Virus record (IMG/VR): IMGVR_UViG_2698536505_000013
Location: 1 to 13,229 of that record
Reading direction: 5' to 3' (one strand)
Origin: a virus
Taxonomy: Duplodnaviria; Heunggongvirae; Uroviricota; Caudoviricetes
Length of the DNA stretch: 13,229 bases
Shown: in pieces, positions 1-13,229 of the stretch
How the letters are laid out: every line of letters starts with the position of its first letter
Numbering within the stretch: the stretch's first letter is position 1
The notes under the pieces: generated by a model
Database searches by the model: none
Seen by the model: only the letters and a program-made list of their open reading frames with translations
Told to the model about the DNA's origin: nothing
Translations under genes and position numbers: made by a program

Positions 1-82
1 GCCGGGGAGGAAGGAAACTACCGGATGGAAAGAGTCCCCCTAAAGCAGACTGACAGACATCACAAATCCCCGGGTGGGGATT

Positions 83-98
83 TGTGTATAAGAGACAG
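83..98. other. Exact 16-nt match to the core of the Tn5/IS50 transposase mosaic end (TGTGTATAAGAGACAG); 17/19 to the full 19-bp end
   Basis: Direct reading: positions 80-98 are ATTTGTGTATAAGAGACAG against the mosaic end AGATGTGTATAAGAGACAG. It is immediately preceded by a perfect hairpin, AAATCCCC-gggt-GGGGATTT (64-83). Bases upstream do not match the canonical Nextera adapter arms. Confidence 0.5.
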
Positions 99-364
99 CT
101 GTGCGGAGGGGCGATCAGCAACCAGGTATATGGGATAATCGCGGATTCAGGTGCTGATACTGAATTCACCGGGAGGCACCCGGCACCATGCTTTGCCACA
201 AAAGTGTTGTTTCTGTTTTTCTCAAACTATCATCATTATCCCTTTATTTCCGGCTGCGCATGGCGTGGCCTTTTTTTTACGACCAGCCACTGGCAGATGG
301 CCATCCTGTAATTTGATTCCGGTTCCGGCTTTTTAACTCTGTTCCTGTACACGGGAGAAATTCG

Positions 365-2215
365 ATGTCGATTAAACATTATGATGTTGTCAGGGCGGCG
401 TCGCCGTCAGACCTTGCGGAAAAGCTGACACATAAACTGAAAGAGGGCTGGCAGCCGTTTGGTAGTCCGGTGGCCATAACCCCTTATACCCTGATGCAGG
501 CGATTGCAGCAGAAGGTGATGTGGTGGTCAGTGGTGCAACTGAGCCGGAGTGGTACTACGTCATCGTACTGGCCGGGCAGTCCAATGCCATGGCTTACGG
601 TGAAGGGCTTCCGCTGCCGGATTCATACGATGCTCCGGATCCGCGCATTAAACAGCTGGCGCGCCGCAGTACAGTGACGCCGGGCGGGGCTGCCTGCAGA
701 TATAACGATATTATTCCGGCCGACCACTGCCTGCATGATGTGCAGGATATGAGTACGCTGAATCATCCGAAGGCAGACCTGAGCAAAGGGCAGTATGGCT
801 GTGTCGGCCAGGGCTTACATATTGCCAAAAAACTGCTTCCGTATATCCCGAATAACGCGGGGATCCTGCTGGTACCATGCTGTCGTGGTGGTTCGGCATT
901 CACCCAGGGCGCGGAGGGGACATTCAGTGCGGACGCGGGGGCCAGCCAGGATTCGGCGCGCTGGGGTGTGGGTAAACCGTTATATCAGGACCTGATTGCG
1001 CGCACTAAAGCTGCATTACAGAAGAACCCGAAAAATGTGTTGCTGGCGGTGTGCTGGATGCAGGGAGAGTTTGACATGAGCGCCGCCACCTACGCACAGC
1101 AACCTGCGCTGTTTACAGCCATGCTGAAGCAGTTTCGTGCTGACCTCACTGTGTTTAACGCGCAGTGTCATGGTGGCAGTGCTGTAAATGTGCCGTGGAT
1201 TTGTGGTGACACGACGTATTACTGGAAAAACACCTACGGCACGCAGTACAACACCATTTACGGGGCGTACAAAAACAGGGAGAGTGATGGCGTTTATTTT
1301 GTACCCTTCATGACAGACGGTAACGGCGTCAATACCGCCACTAACGCGCCGACAGAAGATCCGGATATTCCGGCATCAGGATATTACGGTGCGGCATCGA
1401 GAACGAATGGAAACCAGGTATCATCAAACCGCCCGACACATTTCAGTTCATGGGCGCGCAGGAGCATTATTCCGGATCGTCTGGCAACCGCTATTCTGAA
1501 CGCAGCCGGGCGCACCTCAGCCTTCATCAGTGGTAAGGCACCGGAAATCAAACCCTCGCCCGGCGGCAACACACCATCGGGTCCGTCTGCAGATACGTCC
1601 GTTCGCACAATCTCCCTGCTGCCGACAGCCGGAGAGGCTGCTGCGCAGGGCTGGACCATTAAGGACGGCGGAATTCAGTTGTCGGGTGGTGTATTTAAGA
1701 TCGCCAAGCAGAGCAATAAAACCTGGTCCCTGACGCATCCGGTGGATGACGCAATTACCCTGCTGACACAGGGCGGCAGACTGACCTGTAAGTTCCGCCT
1801 GTCAGGCGCACTGACCAACAATCAGTTCGGGCTGGGGATTTATCTGTATACGGACGCTCCCGTTCCTGATGGTGTGGCGATGACGGGTACCGGTAATCCG
1901 TTCCTGATGTCGTACTTCACTCAGACCACTGACGGTAGAGTGAATCTGATGCATCACAGGAAAGCCGGAAACACGAAGCTGGGGGAGTTCGGCGATTACG
2001 GTAACGACTGGCAGACGCTGGAGCTGGTGTTCACCGCCGGCAGTGCCACGGTTACTCCGAAACTGAATGGAGTGGCTGGCCCGGCATTCCAGGTCATAAA
2101 AGACAGTCTGACACTGGGGCTGAATGCGCTGACGCTGACGGATGTTACAAAAAATGCAGCGTATGGCGTTGAGATAGAAAGTCTGGTGCTGGAGATAAAT
2201 GCACCGGCAGCATAA
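365..2215 (+). CDS. nanS-p: Prophage sialate O-acetylesterase-like protein (NanS-p type): N-terminal DUF1737-like region, SGNH-hydrolase core, C-terminal beta-rich putative carbohydrate-binding domain
   Basis: 616-aa ORF with ATG start and a GGGAGA Shine-Dalgarno upstream. It has the GQSNA block typical of the sialate O-acetylesterase/SGNH family and sits directly upstream of the holin, as the 933W-type yjhS/nanS-p gene does. Double stop TAATAA. Confidence 0.8.
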   Translation: MSIKHYDVVRAASPSDLAEKLTHKLKEGWQPFGSPVAITPYTLMQAIAAEGDVVVSGATEPEWYYVIVLAGQSNAMAYGEGLPLPDSYDAPDPRIKQLARRSTVTPGGAACRYNDIIPADHCLHDVQDMSTLNHPKADLSKGQYGCVGQGLHIAKKLLPYIPNNAGILLVPCCRGGSAFTQGAEGTFSADAGASQDSARWGVGKPLYQDLIARTKAALQKNPKNVLLAVCWMQGEFDMSAATYAQQPALFTAMLKQFRADLTVFNAQCHGGSAVNVPWICGDTTYYWKNTYGTQYNTIYGAYKNRESDGVYFVPFMTDGNGVNTATNAPTEDPDIPASGYYGAASRTNGNQVSSNRPTHFSSWARRSIIPDRLATAILNAAGRTSAFISGKAPEIKPSPGGNTPSGPSADTSVRTISLLPTAGEAAAQGWTIKDGGIQLSGGVFKIAKQSNKTWSLTHPVDDAITLLTQGGRLTCKFRLSGALTNNQFGLGIYLYTDAPVPDGVAMTGTGNPFLMSYFTQTTDGRVNLMHHRKAGNTKLGEFGDYGNDWQTLELVFTAGSATVTPKLNGVAGPAFQVIKDSLTLGLNALTLTDVTKNAAYGVEIESLVLEINAPAA

Positions 2216-2224
2216 TAAAAAAAC

Positions 2225-2259
2225 AGCCAGTACTGACTTTCGTCGGAGAAGTACTGGCT
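2225..2259. terminator. Hairpin (9-bp stem AGCCAGTAC/GTACTGGCT, 17-nt loop) directly after the nanS-p stop; A7 run on the 5' side, so a canonical intrinsic terminator only for minus-strand transcripts
   Basis: Perfect inverted repeat seen in sequence. The T-tract is on the minus strand only; the plus-strand 3' flank (AAGAAGGATAG) is not U-rich. Confidence 0.35.
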
Positions 2260-2514
2260 AAGAAGGATAGTTGGGTTTCACATGATACTTATATCTGGCA
2301 GTACATTTTCTGACAGACAGTGACGGATGTTGTCAAGATATTGTGTCATTTATAACCTGAATCAGGGGTTGGTCGGAATGTTATCTGGCATTTTTAGCAG
2401 AGCCTGAATGCCATAATCACGGCTCCCGGCGTTGGCCGTCAGTGGGTGACACTGGCGGCTTTTTGTTTTCCTTTACTTTCATTTTCTGTCGGCGGTGACG
2501 GAGACATACATCAG

Positions 2515-2721
2515 ATGGAAAAAATCACAACAGGTGTGTCATACACCACGTCAGCGGTGGGGACGGGATACTGGTTACTGCAGCTGCTGGACAAAGTCTC
2601 TCCGTCCCAGTGGGTGGCGATAGGTGTGCTGGGGAGTCTGCTGTTTGGCCTGCTGACGTATCTGACTAACCTGTATTTCAAAATCAGAGAGGACCGTCGC
2701 AAGGCTGCCCGGGGAGAGTAA
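2515..2721 (+). CDS. S: Class II holin, phage 21 S21-like pinholin (68 aa)
   Basis: Translation [68 protein letters not shown] has two transmembrane segments and a charged C-terminus, and is close to the phage 21 holin as I recall it. GGAG lies 11 nt upstream of the ATG. The ORF track's longer GTG start at 2446 is a less likely alternative. Confidence 0.85.
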
Positions 2722-2725
2722 AGCG

Positions 2726-3058
2726 ATGAAGAAAAAATACGAACTGGTTGTTAAAGGGATAAATAATTACCCGGATAAGATTACTGTTACTGTGGCACTG
2801 GAAATTGGTGGGTATCCGTCACTGTTGTTGCCAGATGTGGCGATTAGTCTTGACCGTACTGAAGGAGCCACGCTGGAGTTTTACGAAGCTGAGGCGAAAA
2901 AGCAGGCGAAGCAGTTTTTCATGGATGTTGCTGCCGGGTTATGTGAAGGGGATGGTCCGTTGCCGGAAAAGCGGCCCATCATTTTAGAGGCGCAGGATGT
3001 GTTGATAATCTACAGAGGAAAACTACCGGGAATAATTACTGGTTCTCTGAAGACTTAA
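2726..3058 (+). CDS. Conserved hypothetical protein inside the lysis cassette (YdfR/DUF1327-like, from memory); function unknown
   Basis: 110-aa ORF whose ATG is 4 nt after the holin stop, with GGGGAGAG 7 nt upstream. It occupies the holin-endolysin slot, as ydfR does in the K-12 Qin prophage. Its composition is soluble and acidic. Confidence 0.7.
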   Translation: MKKKYELVVKGINNYPDKITVTVALEIGGYPSLLLPDVAISLDRTEGATLEFYEAEAKKQAKQFFMDVAAGLCEGDGPLPEKRPIILEAQDVLIIYRGKLPGIITGSLKT

Positions 3059-3100
3059 CATATCCAGGGATTTGAAATCGATAAACCCTGATAAATATCC

Positions 3101-3634
3101 ATGAACACCAAAATCAAATACGGCCTGTCGGCTGCCGTTCTGGCGCTGATTGCCGCAGGTGCGCCTGCGCCTGAAATCCTCGACCAGTTTCTGGATGAAA
3201 AGGAAGGTAACCACACCACGGCATACCGTGATGGTGCGGGTATCTGGACCATCTGCCGTGGAGCCACCCGGGTGGATGGTAAGCCTGTCCTCCCGGGCAT
3301 GAAGTTGTCGAAGGAAAAATGCGACCAGGTTAACGCCATTGAACGTGATAAGGCGCTGGCATGGGTGGCGAAAAACATCAGAGTGCCACTGACCGAACCC
3401 CAGAAAGCGGGTATTGCGTCATTCTGTCCGTACAACATTGGTCCCGGTAAGTGTTTCCCGTCTACGTTTTACAGACGAATTAATGCAGGTGATCGAAAAG
3501 GTGCCTGCGAAGCGATTCGCTGGTGGATTAAGGACGGTGGCAGAGACTGCCGTATTCGTTCAAACAACTGTTACGGTCAGGTATCCCGTCGTGACCAGGA
3601 GAGCGCGCTGGCGTGCTGGGGAATTGACAGATAA
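3101..3634 (+). CDS. R: SAR endolysin (T4-lysozyme-like muramidase with N-terminal signal-arrest-release domain)
   Basis: 177 aa. The N-terminal Gly/Ala-rich weakly hydrophobic segment GLSAAVLALIAAGAPA is followed by the catalytic E35-x8-D44-x5-T50 spacing of T4-type lysozymes. Pinholin plus SAR endolysin is the established pairing. No obvious Shine-Dalgarno precedes the ATG. Confidence 0.9.
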   Translation: MNTKIKYGLSAAVLALIAAGAPAPEILDQFLDEKEGNHTTAYRDGAGIWTICRGATRVDGKPVLPGMKLSKEKCDQVNAIERDKALAWVAKNIRVPLTEPQKAGIASFCPYNIGPGKCFPSTFYRRINAGDRKGACEAIRWWIKDGGRDCRIRSNNCYGQVSRRDQESALACWGIDR

Positions 3635-3723
3635 GCAGAATATTTTGCTGAAAAATGCGGTTTGCTCACACGGGCGGATAACACGAAATCCTGCGAACTG
3701 GCAAAAACTAAGTGAATAAAAGT

Positions 3724-3756
3724 AAAACCCCGTTTGTTGGCCGCAAGCGGGGTTTT
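3724..3756 (+). terminator. Stem-loop (9-bp stem AAAACCCCG/CGGGGTTTT, 15-nt loop) followed by a U-rich tract, in the R-Rz intergenic insert
   Basis: Perfect inverted repeat with 3' flank TTTTGTGTTT. The large loop is atypical for an intrinsic terminator, so this may instead be an RNA stability or processing element. Confidence 0.35.
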
Positions 3757-3792
3757 GTGTTTCCTGACTCCGGAAAAGTCAAAGGAGAAAGT

Positions 3793-3930
3793 GTGTTTGA
3801 TTTTAGCAAACTGATTCGGGAGATTCGAATGATGGCTGAAAAATTATCCACCTGGAAGTTCATCCTTATCTGGCTGGTGTTTGTGATTATGGCTTCCGGT
3901 TATTTCATTGGTCAGATACGCTGGTGGTGA
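3793..3930 (+). CDS. Small single-pass membrane protein (45 aa from GTG; alternative 33 aa from ATG at 3829) between endolysin and Rz
   Basis: AAAGGAG Shine-Dalgarno lies 5 nt before the in-frame GTG. Translation ...FDFSKLIREIRMMAEKLSTWKFILIWLVFVIMASGYFIGQIRWW has one clear transmembrane helix. Its stop TGA sits 1 nt before the Rz ATG, which suggests translational coupling. Confidence 0.4.
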   Translation: MFDFSKLIREIRMMAEKLSTWKFILIWLVFVIMASGYFIGQIRWW

Positions 3931-3931
3931 A

Positions 3932-4399
3932 ATGAACCGCGTACTGTGCGTGGTCATCATTGCCCTGCTGGTGGCCTGTGGTGCGCTTAGTCTGGGGCTG
4001 AATCATTACCGTGATAACGCCATAACCTACAAAGAGCAGCGCGATAAAAAAGTCAGTGAGCTGGAGCTGGCAAATGCAACCATTACTGATATGCAGGTGC
4101 GCCAGCGCGATGTTGCTGCGCTCGATGCAAAATACTCGAGGGAATTAGCCGATGCGAGAGCTGAAAATGAAACTCTGCGTGCTGATGTTGCCGCTGGTCG
4201 TAAGCGCCTGCGGATCAACGCCACCTGCTCCGGTACCGTGCGTGAAGCCACCGGCACCTCCGGAATGGATAATGCAACCGGCCCCCGACTGGCAGACACC
4301 GCTGAACGGGATTATTTCACCCTCAGAGAGCGGTTGATGACAATGCAGAAGCAACTGGAAGGGGCACAGGACTATATCCGCACTCAGTGCCTGAAATAA
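3932..4399 (+). CDS. Rz: Inner-membrane spanin subunit (i-spanin) Rz
   Basis: Translation from the ATG at 3932 (MNRVLCVVIIALLVACGALSLGLNHYRDNAITYK...RLADTAERDYFTLRERLMTMQKQLEG...) is collinear with lambda Rz: N-terminal transmembrane segment, coiled coil. The track's TTG start at 3908 is less likely. Confidence 0.9.
   Translation: MNRVLCVVIIALLVACGALSLGLNHYRDNAITYKEQRDKKVSELELANATITDMQVRQRDVAALDAKYSRELADARAENETLRADVAAGRKRLRINATCSGTVREATGTSGMDNATGPRLADTAERDYFTLRERLMTMQKQLEGAQDYIRTQCLK
4152..4337 (+). CDS. Rz1: Outer-membrane lipoprotein spanin subunit (o-spanin) Rz1, embedded in the +1 frame of Rz
   Basis: Translation MRELKMKLCVLMLPLVVSACGS... has a lipobox (LVVSAC) and a proline-rich mature part (PPAPVPCVKPPAPPEWIMQPAPDWQTPLNGIISPSE), nearly collinear with lambda Rz1. 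It lies wholly inside Rz. An alternative start is the ATG at 4167. Confidence 0.8.
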   Translation: MRELKMKLCVLMLPLVVSACGSTPPAPVPCVKPPAPPEWIMQPAPDWQTPLNGIISPSESG

Positions 4400-4749
4400 G
4401 TTTTGTTGATGCGCCGTATCGTCGCTGTATTCCCTCATTAACAGAGACCGCAGCCCGACAGGGAGACTCCTCTGCGCGAGTGTGCGGGGATAATCAAAAA
4501 CGATACACACCGGGGTTTACCGCGTTAACGGAGCGCGGCGTTGTCCCCTCATAGTCGCCTGTCCGGTGCGATGGTGGAAGAAGCCGGATGTTTATCACTA
4601 TTAATTGATGACACAGAAATGGATTCATTGAATTTCAGCACGTTTTTGTATTCGTGTTATTGAACATCTGTTTATTTTACTTTTAACATATTGATAATAA
4701 AAAGAGCTGTAAATCTTTAGATGAGTCGATTTTGTCCGGGGAAGTTCAA

Positions 4750-4890
4750 ATGGATTTTATGCTGACGGTTTCTGGTGTGGTTATCCTGTCCATTGCTTAT
4801 ACTGCAGATAAATATGGCTGCCATTTGTTATCACGTATTGGCGCTTATTGTTCGTTGATGCTGATTTTCTCGTCGCTTTTTTTTGAGTAA
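4750..4890 (+). CDS. Hypothetical 46-aa hydrophobic peptide in the AT-rich moron gap
   Basis: ATG ORF (MDFMLTVSGVVILSIAYTADKYGCHLLSRIGAYCSLMLIFSSLFFE) with two hydrophobic stretches and a weak GGGGAAG Shine-Dalgarno-like sequence upstream. It is below the 60-aa ORF-track cutoff and found by manual reading. I do not recognise homologs. Confidence 0.25.
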   Translation: MDFMLTVSGVVILSIAYTADKYGCHLLSRIGAYCSLMLIFSSLFFE

Positions 4891-5022
4891 GTTATATTAA
4901 TTATAACAAATAATTTTCTGTGTTATTTTTTCAGGCTATCCCGTCAGAGGGGAAGCCTGTACTGCCGGGGAGCGAATGGAAAACTGATGTGTCCGGTAAC
5001 TGCGTGTTCTGTGAACACCATG

Positions 5023-5208
5023 TTACTTAATTATGTAATTCATACCCGAACTCTCTGTTGACAGCCTTCTTCTGCAGGCTTCAATAACCCACGCTGAAAA
5101 GTTACTGGACCCTTTATGCTCAAGGGCGATGTTGATCTGTTCAATCATGTGATTGGGGAAACGGATATTGCGGGTTGTGGTTCTGCGGGTCCGGTTTTTC
5201 GATGACAT
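5023..5208 (-). CDS. YlcI-like (DUF3950-type) small basic protein, putative DNA-binding; 61 aa
   Basis: Minus-strand translation MSSKNRTRRTTTRNIRFPNHMIEQINIALEHKGSSNFSAWVIEACRRRLSTESSGMNYIIK. AAGGA lies 8 nt upstream of this ATG, which is why I prefer it to the track's longer 81-aa start. From memory it resembles DLP12 YlcI. It is divergent from the HNH gene. Confidence 0.6.
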   Translation of the reverse strand: MSSKNRTRRTTTRNIRFPNHMIEQINIALEHKGSSNFSAWVIEACRRRLSTESSGMNYIIK

Positions 5209-5249
5209 ATTTATTTCCTTTACTGATTGCCATATGACGGGGATTTTAC

Positions 5250-5615
5250 ATGGCTGAGCTTCGTACACTCCAGAGCAGAATCAAAACTCTGAACACCCGA
5301 CGGGTGAATATTCTGAAGGGGGAACAGCGTCGTGTCAGTGGCAGTGCACGTGTTTCCCTCAAGCGTCATATCTGGCTCAGGGATGCCGGGCAGTGCTGTC
5401 TCTGTGGTCGTGTGGTTGACCTCTGTGACAGTGAACTCGATCACCGCATTGCACTTCAGTTCGGTGGTGGTAATGAGGAGACGAATCTCTGGACGCTCTG
5501 TACCGAATGCCATCGCCAGAAGTCAGTCAGTGAAACGGCGAGTGGTATGCCGGACCCGACGCTGCCGGAGGTGTCCGGAGGTCATGGCAGGGCAGACGAT
5601 ATCATCGGACTGTGA
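5250..5615 (+). CDS. HNH endonuclease (terminase-associated, HK97 gp74-like)
   Basis: 121 aa with paired Cys motifs (CCLCGR ... CTECH) and an HNH core (ELDHRIALQFGGGNEETNLWTLCTECHRQK). GGGGA Shine-Dalgarno. It lies immediately upstream of the packaging region and terminase genes, as in HK97-like phages. Confidence 0.9.
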   Translation: MAELRTLQSRIKTLNTRRVNILKGEQRRVSGSARVSLKRHIWLRDAGQCCLCGRVVDLCDSELDHRIALQFGGGNEETNLWTLCTECHRQKSVSETASGMPDPTLPEVSGGHGRADDIIGL

Positions 5616-5704
5616 TCCGCCCCGGGGGGGGATCATCCGGCGAAAAAAACGATCGCCCCGGACACCGCCCCCCCTCTCATGCAGAGAAAAAATTCCTGTT
5701 TCAG

Positions 5705-5833
5705 GCCAGTTAACATGTTAACTGGCTGCCCGGGCATTTTTGCGGTTTTTATCTTTATTATTCAGTTTGTTGTGCGAAAAAAATGTTAACTGGCTTTTTC
5801 AGCAAATGTTAACCAGGCAGCAGTTAACATTTG
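5705..5833. other. Candidate cos / packaging-initiation region: cluster of palindromes and repeated TGTTAAC motifs in the HNH-terS intergenic space
   Basis: 22-bp perfect palindrome GCCAGTTAACATGTTAACTGGC (5705-5726); 10-bp palindrome TGCCCGGGCA (5727-5736); AAATGTTAACTGGC (5781-5794); inverted repeat CAAATGTTAAC-n9-GTTAACATTTG (5803-5833); intervening AT-rich tract; C/G homopolymer block CCGCCCCGGGGGGGG at 5617-5631. Confidence 0.45.
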
Positions 5834-5904
5834 CGGCATGAGACGCCGGGAAAAATGGGCTGAACCATACCCGGCTGAGTGCGTTATGGACCCGGGAGGA
5901 GGCT

Positions 5905-6468
5905 GTGCTGACAACGCAAAAACGAAAATTTGCGCTGGCGCTCATGTCCGGGAAAAACAAAACAGCGTCAGCCATTGCCGCCGGTTATTCGGCGAAGACC
6001 GCCAGGGTTAAAGGCTCGCAGCTGGCAAAAGATCCGGAGGTGCTCGCGTTTATAGCCCGTAAACAGTGCGAAACGGTGGAGGTGGATGAGGTTCCTGTTT
6101 ACCGGCAGAAAAAATCAGAGCAGGAGGATAAACCCCGTCGTCGTGAGGTGGCTGCAATAACACAGCCGGACGAAAACAATCCGGAGATGCCTCCGCCCGC
6201 GGTGATATCTCATGGTATTGAATATATGGAGGATGGTCTTCCCGATCCGGTGAAAGCTATGGGGCAGATCCTGGTGGAAAACCTGATAATTGACCCGAAA
6301 CTGGCACTGGATGCGGCCTGGCGACTGGCGCAGTTCACACACCATAAAAAAGGCGATGCCGGTAAAAAATCGGCAAAAGGTGATGCCGTGAAAAAAGCGG
6401 CTAACCGTTTTGCGGTGCCACCACCTCCCCGGCTGGTGGTGAATAACCAGAATGAGGAAAGCGGATGA
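5905..6468 (+). CDS. terS: Terminase small subunit
   Basis: 187 aa with GTG start and GGGAGGAGG Shine-Dalgarno. N-terminal HTH-like segment (KRKFALALMSGKNKTASAIAAGYSAKTARVKGSQLAKDPEV) and a basic, low-complexity C-terminus. Its stop overlaps the terL start (ATGA). Confidence 0.8.
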   Translation: MLTTQKRKFALALMSGKNKTASAIAAGYSAKTARVKGSQLAKDPEVLAFIARKQCETVEVDEVPVYRQKKSEQEDKPRRREVAAITQPDENNPEMPPPAVISHGIEYMEDGLPDPVKAMGQILVENLIIDPKLALDAAWRLAQFTHHKKGDAGKKSAKGDAVKKAANRFAVPPPPRLVVNNQNEESG

Positions 6469-8126
6469 TACCTGTATGGAGCACGGCATGTCCGGACTGG
6501 GCAGAGCGCCTGAAAAAGGGGCTGTCGATTATTCCGGCTCCGATTTATCCGGACCAGGCTGCACATGCACTGGCGATTTTTAAACAACTGCGAATTGTGG
6601 ATGCACCGGGTAGCCCGACATTCGGGGAGTCCTGTGCACCGTGGGTGTTTGACCTGGTGGCGGCCCTGTTTGGCTCCTACGATGCGCAGACCGGTGTTCG
6701 CCATATCAAGGAAGTGTTTATCCTTATCCCCAAGAAAAACAGTAAGTCCACGCTGGCCGCGGGGATCATGATGACGGCGCTGTTACTGAACTGGCGGCAG
6801 GCGGCGGGCTACACCATTCTGGCCCCGACCGTGGAGGTGGCGGCTAACGCCTTCAACCCTGCCAGGGATATGGTACGACGGGACGATGATCTGGATGACC
6901 TCTGTCAGGTGCAGACACATATCCGGACCATCACCCATCGGGTGACGGACACCACCCTGAAGGTGGTGGCAGCCGATCCGAATACGGTGTCCGGTATCAA
7001 GTCCGTGGGGACACTGATTGATGAACTGTGGCTGTTTGGCAAGCAGTACAAAGCGGAAGACATGCTACGTGAAGCCATCGGCGGGCTTGCCTCCCGTCCG
7101 GAAGGATTTGTGGTGTACACAACCACCCAGTCGAATGAACCGCCTGCCGGGGTGTTCAGACAGAAACTGCAGTACGCCCGGGATGTCCGTGACGGCAAAA
7201 TTCATGATCCGCACTTTCTGCCGGTGATATTTGAACACCCTCCTGAAATGGTGGAAAGCGGGGCTCACCTGCTGATGGAAAACCTCGCCATGGTTAACCC
7301 GAATCTCGGTTATTCGGTGGATGAGGCCTTTCTGTACCGGGAGTACCGTAAAGCCCGGGAAGCCGGTGAAGAGACATTCCGGGGGTTCATGTCAAAACAC
7401 GCCAATGTGGAAATTGGTCTTGCCCTGCGCTCTGACCGCTGGGCGGGGGCTGATTTCTGGGAAGAGCAGGGCCGTTGTATCAGCCTGGACGATATCCTGC
7501 GTCGTGCTGATGTGGTGACGGTGGGGATTGACGGCGGAGGGCTGGATGATCTGCTGGGGATGTATGTGATTGGGCGTGACCGGGAGACCCGCGAATGGCT
7601 GGGCTGGGGCCATGCCTGGGCGCATGAAACCGCGGTGGTCAGACGGAAGAGTGAGGCATCCCGGTTTCAGGATTTTGTGGCCTGTGGAGACATGACGATT
7701 GTCCGTCGGGTCGGGGATGACACGGCGGAAGTGGCGGAGTATGTGCGTCGTATTCATGAGGCTGAGTTACTGGATCATATCGGTATTGACCCGTCAGGTG
7801 TGGGGCAGATTCTGGATTCACTGGCGGAAGCCGGGATCCCCGATGAGAGTGTGGTGGGGATAAGCCAGGGCTGGAAGCTGGGCGGGGCCATCAAAACCAC
7901 CGAGCGCAAACTGGCTGAGGGAGTGCTGGTGCATGGTGGTCAGCCACTGATGGCCTGGTGCGTTGGCAATGCCCGGGTGGAGCCTAAAGGTAACGCCATT
8001 CTTATCACCAAACAGGCCAGCGGACGGGGAAAAATTGACCCACTGATGGCGCTCTTCAATGCGGTGTCCCTGATGTCCCTGAATCCGGAACCGAAAAAGA
8101 AAGCGTATGAGGTTTTTTTCATATAA
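6465..8126 (+). CDS. terL: Terminase large subunit (ATPase plus nuclease)
   Basis: 553 aa, translationally coupled to terS. It has a P-loop-like segment (ILIPKKNSKSTLAAG) and C-terminal acidic nuclease-like blocks (VVTVGIDGGG, IGIDPSGVG). Its position between terS and the capsid genes supports the call. Confidence 0.9.
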   Translation: MIPVWSTACPDWAERLKKGLSIIPAPIYPDQAAHALAIFKQLRIVDAPGSPTFGESCAPWVFDLVAALFGSYDAQTGVRHIKEVFILIPKKNSKSTLAAGIMMTALLLNWRQAAGYTILAPTVEVAANAFNPARDMVRRDDDLDDLCQVQTHIRTITHRVTDTTLKVVAADPNTVSGIKSVGTLIDELWLFGKQYKAEDMLREAIGGLASRPEGFVVYTTTQSNEPPAGVFRQKLQYARDVRDGKIHDPHFLPVIFEHPPEMVESGAHLLMENLAMVNPNLGYSVDEAFLYREYRKAREAGEETFRGFMSKHANVEIGLALRSDRWAGADFWEEQGRCISLDDILRRADVVTVGIDGGGLDDLLGMYVIGRDRETREWLGWGHAWAHETAVVRRKSEASRFQDFVACGDMTIVRRVGDDTAEVAEYVRRIHEAELLDHIGIDPSGVGQILDSLAEAGIPDESVVGISQGWKLGGAIKTTERKLAEGVLVHGGQPLMAWCVGNARVEPKGNAILITKQASGRGKIDPLMALFNAVSLMSLNPEPKKKAYEVFFI

Positions 8127-8151
8127 CCCTGCTCACCCTGTAACCATCATG

Positions 8152-8177
8152 AACCGCTGCGGCGGTTTTTTTATTTT
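8152..8177 (+). terminator. Intrinsic-terminator-like hairpin (6-bp stem AACCGC/GCGGTT, 4-nt loop) with T-tract, between terL and the protease-capsid gene
   Basis: Sequence AACCGCtgcgGCGGTTTTTTTATTTTC, followed at once by the CAGGAGG Shine-Dalgarno of the next gene. Confidence 0.5.
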
Positions 8178-8189
8178 CAGGAGGCTGAT

Positions 8190-10127
8190 GTGACTCTTAA
8201 ACGGGCCTGTTCCCTACTGACGGTGAAATCCTTCAGTGAGGATGAACGGGTGATCACCGGGATTGCGTCAACGCCTTCTCCGGATCGGGATGGTGACATC
8301 CTGGAGCCGGAGGGGGCGGAGTTTGGCAGTACGATCCCGTTTCTCTGGCAGCATGACCATTCCCGCCCTGTAGGCCAGTGTACGGTGCGTCGGGTCAGGG
8401 AAGGGCTGGAAATCACGGCAATGCTGGTGAAGCCGGAGCCGGGGATGCCCTCCCAGATGGCAGCCCGGCTGGATGAGGTCTGGGCGGCCATTAAGACCGG
8501 GCTGGTCAGGGGGCTGTCCGTGGGCTTCCGTCCCCATGAATACACCTTTCTGGACGGAGGCGGACTGCATTTTCTGCGCTGGGAACTGATGGAGGTGTCT
8601 GCCGTCACCGTGCCCGCGAATGCGGAATGCACCATCCGGACCATTAAATCTTACGACCGCCCGTTTTCTGCCGCGTCCGGCAACCGGAAACCGGTGGTGA
8701 AAATCGCATCTTCTGCCGGCGCTGCGGCACAGTCAACAACCGTTTTTCATAAGGAAAAGACCATAATGAATATTGGCGAACAGATTAAAAGTTTTGAAAA
8801 CAAGCGTGCAGCGCTGGCAGCCTCCCTTGAGGAGGTCATGACCAAAGCCGCAGAGGAAGGGCGCACGCTGGATGTGGAGGAGGAAGAGCATTACGACAAC
8901 ACCGCAGCGGAAATCCGTCAGGTGGATGCGCACCTGAAGCGCCTGCGTGAACTGGAAGCCGGTAAGGCCGCCACGGCGCAGCCGGTGAAACAGGCCGGTA
9001 ACGGGAATGTGGCCGCGGTGGCTTCAGCGCCGGTGATCCGTGTGGAGCAGAAACTGGAGAAGGGGATTGGCTTCGCCCGCTTTGCCAAATCGCTGGCTGC
9101 GGCTAAAGGCGTCCGATCTGAAGCCCTGGAAGTGGCCCGTCGTCAGTATCCGGATGACAGTCGTCTGCATCATGTCCTGAAATCGGCAGTGGGCGCGGGG
9201 ACCACCACGGATCCGCAGTGGGCAGGCAGCCTGTCTGAATATCAGGAATACGCACAGGACTTTATTGATTACCTGCGTCCGCAGACCATTATCGGGCGAT
9301 TTGGTCAGGGCGGGATCCCTGCACTTCGTCAGGTGCCGTTCAATATCCGTGTGCACGCCCAGGTGTCCGGCGGTGCTGCCGGCTGGGTGGGTGAGGGTAA
9401 GGCAAAACCCCTGACGAAGTTTGATTTTGAATCCATCACCTTCAGTCATGCGAAAGTGTCGGCCATTGCGGTACTGACGGAAGAATTGATCCGTTTTTCC
9501 AGTCCGGCTGCTGATGCACTGGTCCGTAATGCGCTGGCGGAAGCGGTAGTGGCGCGTCTGGATACAGACTTTGTGGACCCGAAAAAAGCGGCGGTGGCGG
9601 ATGTCTCCCCGGCGTCCATCACCCATGATGTGAAGGGCATGGCATCAACCGGTAACCCGGATGCGGATGCCGAGGCCGCGTTTGGCCAGTTTGTGACGGC
9701 AAATCTGCAGCCCACTGGTGCTGTCTGGCTGATGTCCAGCACGAATGCCCTGGCGCTGTCCATGCGTAAAAATGCGCTGGGTCAGAAGGAATACCCGGAC
9801 ATGACCCTGCTTGGCGGCACCTTCCAGGGCCTGCCGGTGATTGTCTCCCAGTACGTGGGTGACCAGCTGGTGCTGGTGAATGCGCCGGATATTTATCTGG
9901 CTGATGACGGCGGTGTGGCGGTGGATATGTCCCGTGAAGCGTCACTGGAGATGCAGTCTGAGCCGGGCGGCGACAGCACCACACCGTCCCCGGTGGAGCT
10001 GGTTTCCATGTTCCAGACAGGCAGCGTGGCCATCCGTGCGGAGCGCTGGATCAACTGGCGTCGTCGCCGTACTGCGGCGGTGGCGGTGATCACCGGAGTG
10101 AACTACGGCAGTGCGTCCGGCGGCTGA
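8190..10127 (+). CDS. Prohead protease (HK97/S78 family) fused in frame to an HK97-fold major capsid protein
   Basis: 645 aa from GTG with AGGAGG 5 nt upstream. The N-terminal ~170 aa carry protease motifs (WQHDH, GLSVGFRP, ELMEVSAVTVPAN). From M193 (internal ATG 8766, AAGGA 10 nt upstream) the sequence looks like a capsid delta domain and HK97-like capsid body. No stop separates the two parts. Confidence 0.85.
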   Translation: MTLKRACSLLTVKSFSEDERVITGIASTPSPDRDGDILEPEGAEFGSTIPFLWQHDHSRPVGQCTVRRVREGLEITAMLVKPEPGMPSQMAARLDEVWAAIKTGLVRGLSVGFRPHEYTFLDGGGLHFLRWELMEVSAVTVPANAECTIRTIKSYDRPFSAASGNRKPVVKIASSAGAAAQSTTVFHKEKTIMNIGEQIKSFENKRAALAASLEEVMTKAAEEGRTLDVEEEEHYDNTAAEIRQVDAHLKRLRELEAGKAATAQPVKQAGNGNVAAVASAPVIRVEQKLEKGIGFARFAKSLAAAKGVRSEALEVARRQYPDDSRLHHVLKSAVGAGTTTDPQWAGSLSEYQEYAQDFIDYLRPQTIIGRFGQGGIPALRQVPFNIRVHAQVSGGAAGWVGEGKAKPLTKFDFESITFSHAKVSAIAVLTEELIRFSSPAADALVRNALAEAVVARLDTDFVDPKKAAVADVSPASITHDVKGMASTGNPDADAEAAFGQFVTANLQPTGAVWLMSSTNALALSMRKNALGQKEYPDMTLLGGTFQGLPVIVSQYVGDQLVLVNAPDIYLADDGGVAVDMSREASLEMQSEPGGDSTTPSPVELVSMFQTGSVAIRAERWINWRRRRTAAVAVITGVNYGSASGG

Positions 10128-10142
10128 GTCTGATGAGGAGGA

Positions 10143-10162
10143 CGGGAGGCGTGCGCCTCCCG
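10143..10162 (+). other. GC-rich hairpin (8-bp stem CGGGAGGC/GCCTCCCG, loop GTGC) 16 nt downstream of the capsid gene stop; no U-tract
   Basis: Perfect inverted repeat seen in sequence. It may be a transcript-stabilising 3' structure for the capsid mRNA rather than a terminator. Confidence 0.4.
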
Positions 10163-10171
10163 TAACAGGTT

Positions 10172-10393
10172 ATGGCAAAGATCCGATATCTGCAGGGCAC
10201 GCATGATGCCCGGGCCGGGGATATCCGTGATGTGGCACAGCCGTGTGCGGAGGTGCTGGTTCGCCTGGGGAAGGCGGAGTACATCACAGTGCGACGTCCG
10301 GCAGGTCAGAAAAAGAAACGTGATGCGGAGCATGGCGAATGTGGAACCTTTTGCGGCGAACCCGAAAAAACCAGAAATCAGGACGTGATGTAA
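10172..10393 (+). CDS. Hypothetical 73-aa protein between capsid and portal genes
   Basis: ATG ORF with gene-like codon usage (MAKIRYLQGTHDARAGDIRDVAQPCAEVLVRLGKAEYITVRRPAGQKKKRD...). It overlaps the proposed portal start by 55 nt and has no obvious Shine-Dalgarno, so the call is tentative. Confidence 0.3.
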   Translation: MAKIRYLQGTHDARAGDIRDVAQPCAEVLVRLGKAEYITVRRPAGQKKKRDAEHGECGTFCGEPEKTRNQDVM

Positions 10394-11703
10394 AAGAGGT
10401 GGGCTGGACCAGCCTGTTTCAGGCGGTGGCTGAGCCTTTTGCCGGTGCCTGGCAGCAGGGCGTGAAAGCCGATCCGGAAAGTGTCCTCTCCTTTCATGCG
10501 GTGTTTTCTTGCATTTCGCTGATATCCCAGGATATCGCCAAAATGCGACTGCGCCTGATGCAGACCGATACACAGGGGATCCGCCGTGAAAAACGGCAGG
10601 GGGATATTGCCCGTCTCTGTCGTCGTCCCAATGCACAGCAGAATCGTATCCAGTTTTTTGAACTGTGGCTGAACGCCAAACTGCGTCACGGCAATACGGT
10701 GGTGCTGAAAATCCGTAACTCCCGGGGGCAGATCAAAGAACTGCGTATTCTGGACTGGAGCCGGGTTGAACCTCTGGTGGCGGATGACGGCGAGGTGTTC
10801 TATCGCATTACACCGGACCGGAACTGCGGGATCACGGAGGCGGTGACGGTGCCTGCCCGGGAAGTGATCCACGACCGGTTTAACTGTTTTTTTCATCCGC
10901 TTGTGGGGCTGCCGCCGGTGTATGCCGCCGGGCTGGCGGCCACGCAGGGGCATCATATTCAGGCAAATTCAACGTCTTTTTTCAGAAATGGCGGCAGGCC
11001 GTCCGGGGTGATTGAGATCCCCGGCAGTATAACGGAAGAAAATGCGAAAAAACTGAAGAGCAACTGGGACAGCGGGTATACCGGCGAAAATGCGGGGAAA
11101 ACGGCGATCCTGAGCAACGGGGCGAAATATAACCCCACGACGTTTTCACCGGTGGATGCGCAGACGGTGGAACAACTGAAGATGACGGCTGAAATTGTCT
11201 GTTCGGTGTTCCGTGTCCCGGCCTACAAGATTGGCGTTGGCCAGCCGCCTTCCAGTGACAACGTGGAGGCGCTGGAGCAGCAGTATTATTCCCAGTGTCT
11301 GCAGACGCTGATTGAGTCCATTGAGCTGTTACTGGATGAGGCGCTGGAAACGGGGGAAAACGAGAGCACGGAGTTTGACGTCACCACGCTGCTGAGAATG
11401 GACAGCGAACGGCGCATGAAAACACTGGGTGAATCGGTGAAAAATACGCTTCTCACGCCCAATGAGGCCCGTAAACGTGAGAACCTGCCGCCCCTGGCCG
11501 GCGGTGATGCACTGTATCTTCAGCAGCAGAACTACAGTCTGGAGGCGCTGTCCCGTCGTGATGCCCGTGAAGATCCGTTTGCGTCGTCCGGGAAAAGAGT
11601 TTCAGCCCAACTGCCTGACGGCGCATCTGACGGTAATAAGGCAATCAGTGAAACAGAGCATGGTGCGTTGAAAGCGATGTTGAGGGGGATACTGAGAAAA
11701 TGA
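10339..11703 (+). CDS. Portal protein (HK97-family portal)
   Basis: 454 aa from ATG. The N-terminal region PESVLSFHAVFSCISLISQDIAKMRLRL and C-terminal blocks (FRVPAYKIGVG, LLRMDSERRMKTLGE, LTPNEARKRENLPPLAGGDALY) are typical of HK97-type portals. The start is uncertain within about 60 nt. Confidence 0.85.
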   Translation: MWNLLRRTRKNQKSGRDVKEVGWTSLFQAVAEPFAGAWQQGVKADPESVLSFHAVFSCISLISQDIAKMRLRLMQTDTQGIRREKRQGDIARLCRRPNAQQNRIQFFELWLNAKLRHGNTVVLKIRNSRGQIKELRILDWSRVEPLVADDGEVFYRITPDRNCGITEAVTVPAREVIHDRFNCFFHPLVGLPPVYAAGLAATQGHHIQANSTSFFRNGGRPSGVIEIPGSITEENAKKLKSNWDSGYTGENAGKTAILSNGAKYNPTTFSPVDAQTVEQLKMTAEIVCSVFRVPAYKIGVGQPPSSDNVEALEQQYYSQCLQTLIESIELLLDEALETGENESTEFDVTTLLRMDSERRMKTLGESVKNTLLTPNEARKRENLPPLAGGDALYLQQQNYSLEALSRRDAREDPFASSGKRVSAQLPDGASDGNKAISETEHGALKAMLRGILRK

Positions 11704-12761
11704 CGGAACGGGAACTGTCCATTATTCGTGCACTGGGCGAAGAATTCGCCACGGTGCTGGCGGATTTACAGCACACATTTGAGGAGAAGATGGCCGCGCA
11801 GGCACAAGCGTTTGAAGAGAAACTGGCTTCCCTGTCGGCGGTATTACAGAAGCATGTGACGGTGGATGAGGTACATCCGGTTCTGCAGGCGATGGTGGAT
11901 GACGCTGTGGGGACCATTCCGGTACCGCGTGATGGTCGTGATTATGATCCGGATGTACTGCAGCAGGCGGTGAATGATGCGGTTGCGAATATTCCGGTAC
12001 CGGCGGACGGCAAAAGTATCACCCCCGATGATGTGCGTCCGATGCTTGAGCAGATGGTGAAAGAGGCTGTAAGCCATATCCCTGCTCCGCGTGACGGTCG
12101 TGATTATGATCCGGATGTACTGCAGCAGGCGGTGAATGATGCGGTTGCGAATATTCCGGTACCGGCGGACGGCAAAAGTATCACCCCCGATGATGTGCGT
12201 CCGATGCTTGAGCAGATGGTGAAAGAGGCCGTAAGCCATATCCCTGCTCCGCGTGATGGTCGTGATTACGATCCGGAAGTACTGAAGCAGGCGGTTCTGG
12301 AGGCGGTGAATGCCCTTCCGGCTCCGCAGGACGGGCGTGATGCCACGGCACTGGAAGTGCTCCCCGCCATTGACGATCAAAAATCCTTTCCCCGGGGCAC
12401 GTATGCCACACACCTTGGAGGACTCTGGCGGGCGTATGAAAAAACGCACGGGATGCGGGGATGGGAATGCCTGGTTGACGGGGTGGCGGATATTGACGTC
12501 AGTATGACGGGTGAGCGGTTGTTCTCTGTGGTGATCCGGCAGAGCAGTGGCCAGTGTACGGAAAAAACATTTTCCCTGCCGGTGATGCTCTACCGCGGAG
12601 TGTTCAGAGCCGGTGAAACCTACCACCCCGGCGATACGGTGACGTGGGGGGGCTCGCTGTGGCACTGCAACAGTATGACCGCCGATAAACCGGGGGATGC
12701 GCATGCATCTGGCTGGACGCTGGCTGCCAAACGGGGACGGGATGCTGGAGGCGGAAAATGA
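11700..12761 (+). CDS. Repeat-containing structural protein: N-terminal coiled coil, six ~27-aa repeats, C-terminal carbohydrate-binding-like domain; candidate head decoration/fibre protein
   Basis: 353 aa, ATG overlapping the portal stop (ATGA), GAGGGGGA Shine-Dalgarno. The repeats have the form V..L.QAV.DAV..IP.P.DG. The C-terminus (YRGVFRAGETYHPGDTVTWGGSLWHCNSMTADKPGDAHASGWTL) resembles CBM5/12-type modules. Its stop overlaps the next gene. Confidence 0.8.
   Translation: MTERELSIIRALGEEFATVLADLQHTFEEKMAAQAQAFEEKLASLSAVLQKHVTVDEVHPVLQAMVDDAVGTIPVPRDGRDYDPDVLQQAVNDAVANIPVPADGKSITPDDVRPMLEQMVKEAVSHIPAPRDGRDYDPDVLQQAVNDAVANIPVPADGKSITPDDVRPMLEQMVKEAVSHIPAPRDGRDYDPEVLKQAVLEAVNALPAPQDGRDATALEVLPAIDDQKSFPRGTYATHLGGLWRAYEKTHGMRGWECLVDGVADIDVSMTGERLFSVVIRQSSGQCTEKTFSLPVMLYRGVFRAGETYHPGDTVTWGGSLWHCNSMTADKPGDAHASGWTLAAKRGRDAGGGK
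11925..12248 (+). repeat. In-frame tandem duplication, 2 x 162 bp (160/162 identical), plus a diverged partial third copy (12249-~12340)
   Basis: Copy 1 is 11925-12086 and copy 2 is 12087-12248. They differ at two positions (gatggt/gacggt and gaggct/gaggcc). Each encodes a 54-aa unit, PRDGRDYDPDVLQQAVNDAVANIPVPADGKSITPDDVRPMLEQMVKEAVSHIPA. Confidence 0.95.
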
Positions 12762-13084
12762 CGGCATTACTGACACTGGAAGAGATCAAGGCACATCTGC
12801 GTGTCGACTATGACGCGGATGATGACATGCTGATGGACAAGGTTCGTCAGGCTACCGCCGTGCTGCTGGCCTACATTCAGGGCAGCCGGGATAAGGTGAT
12901 TCGTGAGGACGGTGAGCTGATCCCGGGCGAGGCATTAACCCGGATGAAGGGGGCTGCCATGCGACTGACCGGGATGCTGTACCGGAATCCGGATCTTGCT
13001 GAGCGGGAAGACCTCGTGCAGGGGGAACTGCCGTTTTCTGTGTCCGTGCTGATTTACGATTTGCGTTGTCCGACGGTGTTATGA
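12758..13084 (+). CDS. Head-tail connector / adaptor protein (gp6-like)
   Basis: 108 aa, ATG overlapping the upstream stop (ATGA), GGAGG Shine-Dalgarno. The N-terminus MTALLTLEEIKAHLRVDYDADDDMLMDKV matches the characteristic start of gp6-like connector proteins. Confidence 0.8.
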   Translation: MTALLTLEEIKAHLRVDYDADDDMLMDKVRQATAVLLAYIQGSRDKVIREDGELIPGEALTRMKGAAMRLTGMLYRNPDLAEREDLVQGELPFSVSVLIYDLRCPTVL

Positions 13085-13229
13085 GGAGGGAGGAATGGCA
13101 ATATCGTAAGCGACTCGTCAGAACCGTATTGATATTTACTGAGAGCTCAGATCAACTTTCCAGGGCAACAGATCGCGTACCCGGTTTGCCGGCCAGTCCT
13201 GGATATGTTCAATGACGTAACGCAGCCAC

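Follow-up and report, generated by a model that had tools for sequence, protein, structure and literature searches.

A hairpin and a small membrane-protein gene between R and Rz

We analysed a stretch of viral DNA of 13,229 nucleotides (nt; IMG/VR record IMGVR_UViG_2698536505_000013, positions 1 to 13,229, hereafter the window), which is the late region of a lambdoid prophage of the Shiga toxin (Stx) phage type, and describe here the interval which separates its endolysin gene R from its inner-membrane spanin (i-spanin) gene Rz. R stops at position 3634 and the ATG of Rz lies at 3932, leaving an insert of 297 nt (3635-3931). A first-pass annotation of the same DNA had placed here an insert of approximately 300 base pairs (bp) containing a hairpin with a 9-bp stem and a U-rich tail and an open reading frame (ORF) for a 45-residue peptide with a single transmembrane (TM) helix (3793-3930), which was described as having a strong AAAGGAG Shine-Dalgarno (SD) sequence and a stop 1 nt before the Rz ATG. 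All of these features were recovered, with the stem of the hairpin extending to 15 pairs. The insert was found to consist of two parts: a 94-nt spacer which is linked to R (3635-3728) and a portable cassette of ~220 nt (approximately 3711-3930, plus strand, the left edge being approximate) made up of an A-tract, the hairpin, a U-tract, an SD leader and the 45-codon ORF. Only the A-rich end of the spacer belongs to the cassette. This cassette is widespread and uncharacterised, and we class it with the accessory or moron-like late genes of lysis cassettes.

The ORF runs on the plus strand from a GTG at 3793 to a TGA at 3928-3930, a single base (3931) separating it from the Rz ATG, and its last 8 nt, GGTGGTGA (3923-3930), are the SD of Rz. 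Its product matches the PHROG family phrog_6632, which is annotated as being of unknown function, over the full length of the hidden Markov model (HMM; E 8e-30, residues 1-45 on profile positions 1-45 of 45). The ORF has already been called by PGAP as the hypothetical protein WP_000459342.1, while most of the listed phage records which contain it carry no annotation for it and one record lengthens it to 72 amino acids with a start inside the spacer, 5' of the hairpin. Exactly 45 codons were found in 157 of 176 copies, with no frame-breaking indels, and 145 of these copies start with GTG and 22 with TTG. Pairwise ratios of nonsynonymous to synonymous substitution (dN/dS) range from 0.04 to 0.3, at dS values of >1 which are at or past saturation. 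These comparisons mark the ORF as a conserved gene on which purifying selection acts. An exhaustive HMM profile search among 1.84 billion cluster representatives retrieved 40, all of 32-86 amino acids, and on this evidence phrog_6632 is a stand-alone small-protein family.

An AlphaFold2 model of the protein (pLDDT 86) contains a helix at residues 4-17, a break at 18-19 and a second helix at 20-44, which fits a short amphipathic N-terminal helix followed by one C-terminal TM helix (residues ~23-42). An amphipathic helix preceding the TM helix can be read from the conserved motif SKLIRELRxMxEKLPxW(K/R)F, and the distribution of charges suggests an N-in, C-out topology. Neither this peptide nor three other mini-TM ORFs of such loci gave a match in Pfam, NCBIfam or PADLOC.

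The hairpin, which we call hairpin 1, spans 3723-3757, with an A-run (3711-3727) on its 5' side and a U-run (3753-3762) on its 3' side. The core of its 15-bp stem consists of 9 bp of G+C (3728-3736 paired with 3744-3752), and its folding energy of -21.3 kcal/mol (z -4.2) was equalled by 0 of 200 shuffled sequences. A G+C-rich stem-loop thus stands directly 5' of a U-run, as in intrinsic terminators; the plus-strand tail reads UUUUGUGUUU and the minus strand has the same stem with the tail UUUUACUUUUAUU, so that hairpin 1 has the form of a bidirectional intrinsic terminator, as predicted from sequence. It is absent from the list produced by a terminator scan because that scan counts the U-run as stem. 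In an alignment of 27 sequences, 94.8% of cells were paired and 8 of 12 pairs had double changes; 0 of 500 shuffles matched the observed values and slid controls reached at most 61.5%. The sequence of the inner stem varies by lineage and its complementarity is kept. Rfam models gave no match at gathering score anywhere in the window, and between 3550 and 4000 at E values of up to 10 the matches near the hairpin (rimP, and ohsC at E 1.5) covered the terminator only.

We examined the 110 nt upstream of each homologue and found a shared architecture, in which an A-rich run is followed by a G+C hairpin, a U-rich run (UUUCUNNUUUCU), a short helix or anti-SD segment which has the SD at its end, and the start codon. 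The same architecture was found in 12 genera. Carriers of the cassette are Escherichia, Pseudomonas phage YMC11/02/R656, Citrobacter, Edwardsiella, Yersinia, Izhakiella, Sodalis, Brenneria, Pantoea, Symbiopectobacterium and an Azoarcus metagenome-assembled genome (MAG), all but the first two of which were added by scans of one genome per species and of IMG/VR, as was Serratia; homologues of the peptide also occur in E. albertii, E. fergusonii and Salmonella, and the cassette is found in Salmonella phages. Isolated phages carrying the gene include SPN3UB, FSL SP-016, SEN34, TL-2011c and two Pseudomonas siphoviruses. Many Stx2a, Stx2c and Stx1a phages match the 361 bases around the insert at 100% identity and H-19B matches them at 99.2%; of 5426 complete E. 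coli genomes, 871 have at least 80% of this stretch.

The genes next to the ORF were compared over 173 loci, selected by presence of the ORF and including many near-identical E. coli prophages, and in 131 of these the upstream neighbour was a PF00959 lysozyme of the signal-arrest-release (SAR) type. In other lysis contexts it was GH108+PG_binding_3, Peptidase_M15_4, GH19 or a 138-residue protein at the endolysin position, so that the upstream endolysins belong to four Pfam families and one unassigned, those of the GH108, M15 and GH19 type lying outside the SAR lysozyme family. Downstream neighbours in lysis contexts were PF03245 Rz, DUF2514 or an unassigned TM/coiled-coil protein. Baseplate genes provide a second recurrent site, between a gpV-like spike gene and the next wedge gene, which is occupied by two subfamilies (for example SEN34_23). 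Single cases were found behind a tail-fibre gene, DUF2612, an LPD38 polyvalent protein, a T7-gp14-like protein, a TonB_C lipoprotein and an Ant gene. In most contexts the ORF ends in CGCTGGTGGTGA or TAG and the ATG of the next gene follows 1-14 nt on. Hairpin, leader and ORF travel together behind unrelated upstream genes, and by this comparison hairpin and ORF are one horizontally mobile cassette.

Several of the loci are worth describing individually. In Salmonella phage SPN3UB the ORF is unannotated and lies in a gap of ~400 nt between the lysozyme gene gp67 and the Rz gene gp68 (2001-2135 of locus L183). In Pseudomonas phage YMC11/02/R656 it corresponds to gp058 (48 amino acids), which stands with a complete cassette architecture among small ORFs between tail genes (2418-2647 of locus L181). 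Loci L112-L114 contain two diverged tandem copies of the ORF (~3004-3389) with neither the upstream hairpin nor the minus-strand -10 motif described below, and these may be decaying duplicates.

Leader, coding constraint and predicted antisense RNA

The SD (AAAGGAG, 3781-3787) lies 5 nt 5' of the GTG at 3793 and is predicted to form a duplex of -8.7 kcal/mol with the anti-SD. A leader which could occlude it extends over 3766-3787 (plus strand), where CUCC (3768-3771) can pair with GGAG (3784-3787) or GACU (3766-3769) with AGUC (3777-3780). Across lineages the SD region is paired in minimum free energy (MFE) structures with probabilities of 0.44-0.98, and lineage-specific pairs of leader arms are visible by eye; in the Pseudomonas phage copy the second helix, that of the leader, has changed from CCUUG/CAAGG to CAUG/CAUG. 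Occlusion of the SD by a leader helix is plausible. No promoter-like site was found on the plus strand of the interval or cassette by a promoter scan, nor was a conserved plus-strand -10 seen by inspection of 44 distinct leader sequences.

The beginning of the ORF is constrained beyond its protein sequence. Mean synonymous codon entropy was 0.49 bits in codons 2-13 vs 1.13 bits in codons 15-42 (p 0.0014), where synonymous variation is free. Asp3 is always GAT and Phe4 always TTT, Ser5 is AGC in 20/20 although six codons are possible, Arg12 is CGA in 20/20 and Glu10 is GAG in 19/20. Codons 3-6 (GAT TTT AGC AAA) contain, on the minus strand, a predicted extended -10 promoter element, TGCTAAAAT (3800-3808). 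The corresponding minus-strand motif TGnTAnnnT was present in 22/22 lineages, including the Pseudomonas phage and the Azoarcus MAG. The Azoarcus copy has kept the motif despite differing amino acids (TGATAAAAT), and in gp058 of the Pseudomonas phage GAT TTT AGC stands at codons 2-4 and again gives TGCTAAAAT on the minus strand. When synonymous codons were redrawn, the motif arose with a chance of 0.04-0.21 per lineage; we point out that these lineages are related, and that a product of these probabilities would overstate the significance.

The constraint on codons 2-13 fits a minus-strand extended -10 which would give rise to an antisense RNA of ~80 nt (3716-3794, minus strand). Such an RNA would start at about the start codon of the ORF, extend over the SD and U-tract and terminate at hairpin 1, and would consist of an anti-SD 5' end, a stem-loop, an A-rich linker and the hairpin 1 terminator with its U tail, this last being provided on the minus strand by the conserved A-run 5' of the hairpin. 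Its location is predicted from the motif and the A-tract, and the predicted RNA folds with z values of -2.9 to -4.2 in four lineages.

The same constraint is also compatible with an internal start site. An SD-like GGGAG (3818-3822, codons 9-10) lies 9 nt 5' of an invariant ATG at codon 14 (3832-3834), the whole candidate element covering 3818-3834 on the plus strand. Nearly all lineages have their strongest internal anti-SD pairing of the ORF at this site (-5.7 to -8.4 kcal/mol), the site is retained as AGGGG or AAGGAA where the residues differ, and several gene callers have picked the ATG14 start (P0022, P0126). This suggests a second product of 32 amino acids, encoded by 3832-3930.

Surrounding genes and other occupants of the slot

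The slot between R and Rz is polymorphic, being empty in Qin, occupied by ant in 933W and by the cassette in the window. In the Qin prophage of K-12, rrrQ overlaps rzpQ and there is no insert. In comparison with 933W, homology spans R and continues, at 93% identity over the spacer, up to 3728, where it breaks off to return at the start of Rz; the intervening ~0.9 kb of 933W carries ant. The same gene occupies this interval in the Sakai prophages Sp6, Sp10 and Sp15. The first-pass annotation had stated that related Stx phages carry an antirepressor-like gene here, which is correct, and had raised the possibility that the insert is what a deletion left of it, for which the comparison with the 933W interval provided no grounds. 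The 200 nt at 3729-3928 had no nucleotide similarity to the 933W R-Rz module (only chance matches by blastn) and, in all frames, only chance similarity to Ant (best blastx E 0.28 in a three-protein database with two Ant proteins), so no degenerate remnant was found in another frame, and the ORF which is present is under purifying selection. On these alignments the insert is not a remnant of an ant-type module. The alternative offered by the first-pass annotation, an additional component of the lysis cassette or a membrane-targeted moron, is compatible with the evidence. As a separate observation, the 94-nt spacer behind R is kept whether a mini-gene or ant follows.

Other, unrelated mini-TM ORFs occupy the same slot before Rz. 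In 933W and in Sakai Sp6, Sp10 and Sp15 the order is ant, a 48-residue TM ORF of phrog_4906, and Rz, the Sakai members being ECs_1966, ECs_5713 and ECs_5741. This family was confined to E. coli, and homology between it and phrog_6632 was given a probability of 0.2% by hhalign. In 933W the single-TM ORF (5424-5570 of locus L004) has a start which overlaps the ant stop (TGATG) and a stop 7 nt before the Rz ATG. A further E. coli prophage (3001-3486 of locus L166) has four small single-TM ORFs in tandem between R and Rz, namely a 44-residue variant of the phrog_6632 family, a phrog_4906 member and two short paralogues, the last of which has IRWW at its C-terminus and a stop 1 nt before Rz.

The remainder of the lysis region is of a familiar type. 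A class II holin of the phage 21 S type (S21) is encoded at 2506-2721 (plus strand; PF04971, E 1e-32; phrog_9876/phrog_20) and R, a SAR-type T4-lysozyme-like endolysin, at 3101-3634 (plus strand; PF00959, E 1.4e-24; phrog_7), direct reading of which gives a hydrophobic N-terminus, MNTKIKYGLSAAVLALIAAGAPAP. Between these two genes lies a DUF1327 ORF (2726-3058, YdfR-like, 110 amino acids), a further conserved passenger of the lysis cassette. Rz (3932-4399, plus strand; PF03245, E 3e-50; phrog_13), the start of which is coupled to the 45-codon ORF (TGAaATG), contains the embedded gene for Rz1, the outer-membrane spanin (4152-4337, plus strand; PF06085, E 1.5e-19). Downstream are an HNH gene and then large plus-strand ORFs in series, consistent with packaging and head genes.

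Upstream of the holin gene is a NanS-p-type esterase gene (365-2215), and the gap between the two (2216-2445) contains a terminator-like hairpin with a T-run (2434-2460) just 5' of the holin. The prophage small RNAs (sRNAs) PasA, PasC and PasD1 have been assigned to the NanS-p esterase-holin gap by a 2026 preprint. It is also worthy of note that approximately 4473-4521 of the window, on the minus strand, is the counterpart of EcOnc11, a peak found by Hfq cross-linking and analysis of cDNA (CRAC) in E. coli O157 Sakai. This unannotated candidate sRNA site lies ~75-120 nt 3' of Rz, antisense to the late operon, inside a block (3929-4588) with 92% identity to Sakai Sp10; its copies are EcOnc10 in Sp12 and EcOnc12 in Sp9.

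Proposed role and alternative explanations

The reading which we favour, with doubt and confidence about evenly balanced, is that the cassette encodes a late-expressed, tightly gated inner-membrane accessory protein which modulates holin- or spanin-dependent lysis and is dispensable. The role is read from position, since in most loci an endolysin gene lies upstream and an i-spanin gene downstream; the protein has one predicted TM helix and its gene lies between R and Rz both in the window and in most loci, as would be expected of a small membrane protein of a lysis cassette. In the lysogen the peptide, which is presumably harmful, would be kept off by several barriers ranging from weak to strong, namely the terminator, SD occlusion, the weak GTG or TTG start and the predicted antisense RNA, which would be fired from the -10 in codons 3-6 and be complementary to the SD and start codon. 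As the cassette appears to have no plus-strand promoter, expression of the ORF would depend on late read-through transcription: the late transcript, made by Q-modified, antiterminated polymerase, would read through the hairpin and the 45-residue protein would be made, possibly with a second product of 32 residues from the internal SD and ATG14. The last codons of the ORF provide the ribosome-binding site (RBS) of the next gene, with the stop abutting its ATG. By this geometry the cassette can lie within an operon and pass ribosomes on, here to Rz.

Several observations weigh against this reading. The predicted antisense promoter has a weak -35 (3/6), and chance occurrences of the TGnTAnnnT motif in a single sequence are not rare. 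The SD-occluding helix has an MFE no better than shuffles (z about 0), and its covariation in a MAFFT alignment was not above controls, two informative rows being out of register. The protein had no homology to holin, antiholin, releasin, defence or toxin families in Pfam, NCBIfam, PADLOC or the PHROGs of the lysis category. Approximately one fifth of the loci have a baseplate, tail-fibre, internal-virion-protein or polyvalent-protein context with no adjacent lysis gene; a strong plus-strand terminator does not sit easily with the baseplate contexts, antitermination not being known from P2- or Mu-like late operons. Lysis genes can sit among structural genes in other phages (the T7 holin is an example), and on this precedent the non-lysis contexts may not exclude a role in lysis. 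Many relatives have the same S-R-Rz genes without the cassette, as in Qin, and ant uses the same site, so that the slot may simply tolerate insertions. Strings of the peptide were found neither in the full texts searched nor in the supplements of two studies of ribosome profiling (Ribo-seq) and small proteins (Venturini 2020, Huecker 2017). In Sakai, the best-studied enterohaemorrhagic E. coli, the three prophages examined (Sp6, Sp10 and Sp15) are of the ant type, because of which the CRAC and Ribo-seq data from this strain are probably uninformative.

The non-lysis contexts, the dispensability and the presence of ant at the same site keep alive a more generic reading, which we regard as a real possibility if not a probable one: that this is a moron-type accessory gene unrelated to lysis, for example a superinfection exclusion protein or host-membrane modulator, in insertion-tolerant late junctions of which the endolysin-spanin junction is the commonest permissive site. 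Related phages whose lysis cassettes are otherwise similar differ in whether they carry the cassette between conserved late genes, its slot also accepts ant, baseplate, tail-fibre, LPD38 and T7-gp14-like contexts exist, and small single-TM exclusion proteins are known from morons (HK97 gp15). A moron would be expected to have its own promoter 5' and terminator 3', whereas here the hairpin precedes the gene, the stop adjoins the following ATG and the promoter scan of the cassette was empty, and with a terminator upstream and no plus-strand promoter found, expression from the prophage is not expected, unlike in classical morons. The recurrence of the gene before three families of i-spanin and after four or five of endolysin also speaks against this reading, and PADLOC gave no match. 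We think it improbable that the cassette is a selfish type I toxin-antitoxin-like element, in which a membrane toxin and a minus-strand RNA antitoxin persist by addiction or by effects resembling abortive infection. Its peptide is hydrophobic and, at 45 amino acids with a TM helix at ~23-42, within the size of type I toxins (<60) and indeed below 50, the SD may be occluded and the start is weak, an antisense RNA with its own terminator is predicted over the translation-initiation region, and the cassette moves across genera and contexts. The putative toxin mRNA, however, has no promoter of its own in the scan of the cassette or the 44 leaders inspected, the ORF always has the orientation of the late genes and is coupled to them, neither Rfam nor known toxin families gave a match (the ohsC-like match at E 1.5 again covering the terminator only), and the antisense RNA is only predicted.

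The remaining explanations concern the origin of the parts. It is very improbable that hairpin 1 is an ordinary terminator or sRNA 3' end of R or its spacer and that the ORF is an unrelated neighbour or a mere coupling ORF, as orf45 of Gifsy-1 isrK. The spacer (3635-3728) is indeed conserved with 933W and coupling ORFs of this kind exist (PMC4825925), but the hairpin accompanies the ORF behind unrelated genes rather than R, and the ORF is under purifying selection at the protein level across saturated synonymous divergence, unlike isrK orf45, in which the nucleotide sequence is conserved and the amino-acid sequence variable (PMC4825925). The comparative data thus largely refute this explanation. 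Descent by deletion from a 933W-like antirepressor insert can be practically discounted. It would account for the presence of ant in the same interval of 933W and Sakai Sp6, Sp10 and Sp15 and for the similar ends of the two modules (an A-rich left end, and CTGGTGG(T/G)GTGA before Rz), but 3729-3928 has no nucleotide or six-frame similarity to the 933W module or to two Ant proteins, and the ORF family is independent and widespread.

A more far-reaching version of the lysis reading, which we consider unlikely, is that the cassette represents a new class of self-regulated micro-gene moving between phage late operons, with two isoforms, silenced in lysogens by an antisense promoter within the coding sequence and a shared bidirectional terminator, and acting as a new lysis component with the i-spanin or on timing. 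If this were true, the holin-endolysin-spanin scheme of lambdoid and Stx phages, taken together with the stacked unrelated mini-TM ORFs, would miss a recurrent fourth player.

Shiga toxin is released by lysis by Stx phages, and S-R-Rz cassettes are treated as complete; the 45-residue protein could alter the timing of lysis and hence the yield of toxin and phage. The cassette is also a compact example of a tiny gene which, with its own RNA-level control and coupling signals, inserts into operons without polarity, and if the antisense promoter in codons 3-6 is real, its coding sequence would be constrained by the promoter of its own regulator.

Comparison with known systems

Among reported prophage RNAs and lysis genes, Table S2 of the Hfq-CRAC study of Tree et al. 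2014 contains nothing in the R-Rz interval, its only nearby peaks being EcOnc10/11/12 downstream of Rz, and a survey of Stx-phage lysis cassettes (PMC8136144) makes no mention of the 45-residue ORF. The anti-sRNAs AgvB and AsxR are located at the moron site after pR', not in the R-Rz interval, and Salmonella STnc1380 and STnc2080 are, by their reported coordinates and description, not at the lysis cassette. A Mu-type releasin (DUF2730) was also rejected, as there was no Pfam match and the TM helix is C-terminal rather than an N-terminal tether.

The cassette resembles the type I systems hok/sok, ldr/rdl, shoB/ohsC and zor/orz in having a hydrophobic peptide of <60 amino acids, an SD which may be sequestered and a predicted short antisense RNA which covers the translation-initiation region and ends in an intrinsic terminator. 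It differs from them in that no promoter was found for the peptide mRNA itself, the ORF lies within late operons to which it is coupled, and there is no Rfam match. The sar RNA of P22, which acts on ant, is similar as a case of cis-antisense control of a start site in a phage, the antisense RNA here being predicted.

The dual-start holin genes, lambda S105/S107 with its sdi stem-loop and phage 21 S68/S71, are likewise small membrane-protein genes of the lysis region with RNA structure at the start and, possibly in common with the present gene, two in-frame starts whose products differ at a charged N-terminus. However, the candidate starts of the phrog_6632 gene are 13 codons apart vs 2-3, its protein has a single, C-terminal TM helix and no holin-family match, its dual start is only inferred, and the window already has an S21-type holin (2506-2721). 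With lambdoid morons (Juhala et al. 2000; bor, lom, HK97 gp15) the cassette shares its nature as variably present extra DNA between conserved late genes which encodes a small envelope protein. A classical moron is an autonomous unit of promoter, gene and terminator expressed in the prophage, whereas in the phrog_6632 cassette a promoter was not found, the hairpin is upstream and the 3' end is suited to coupling.

The isrK-orf45-anrP-isrJ locus of Gifsy-1 (PMC4825925) also has a 45-codon ORF after a terminator hairpin which is coupled to the gene that follows and, in related phages, associated with an antirepressor-type gene, and its RBS is occluded, as may be the case here. It was rejected as a match, being a different locus, downstream of antQ, with an ORF of other sequence and ATG starts; Rfam isrK and isrJ models had no match in the window at E values of up to 10 or, at gathering score, in 12 related loci, nor were they matched in Salmonella loci which carry the cassette. 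The phrog_4906 ORF of 933W-type phages is similar in size (44-48 amino acids), in its one TM helix and in its position directly 5' of the Rz ATG, and it can adjoin a phrog_6632 gene, as in the prophage with four tandem ORFs. It is nevertheless non-homologous, restricted to E. coli, coupled to ant by the TGATG overlap and without a hairpin leader.

Phage P1 is said to have extra holin-like proteins as accessory membrane proteins of lysis. In the Y-K-lysA-lysB/lysC cassette of phage P2 (Ziermann et al. 1994), LysA is reportedly a non-essential membrane protein which is encoded in the endolysin-i-spanin slot and co-transcribed late. As a membrane protein between an endolysin and an i-spanin it offers a precedent for a role in timing or modulating lysis. 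The two proteins have no sequence relationship, LysA reportedly being larger and multi-spanning vs 45 amino acids with one TM helix here, and of the two only the phrog_6632 gene has its own RNA leader, is mobile between modules and also occurs outside lysis cassettes.

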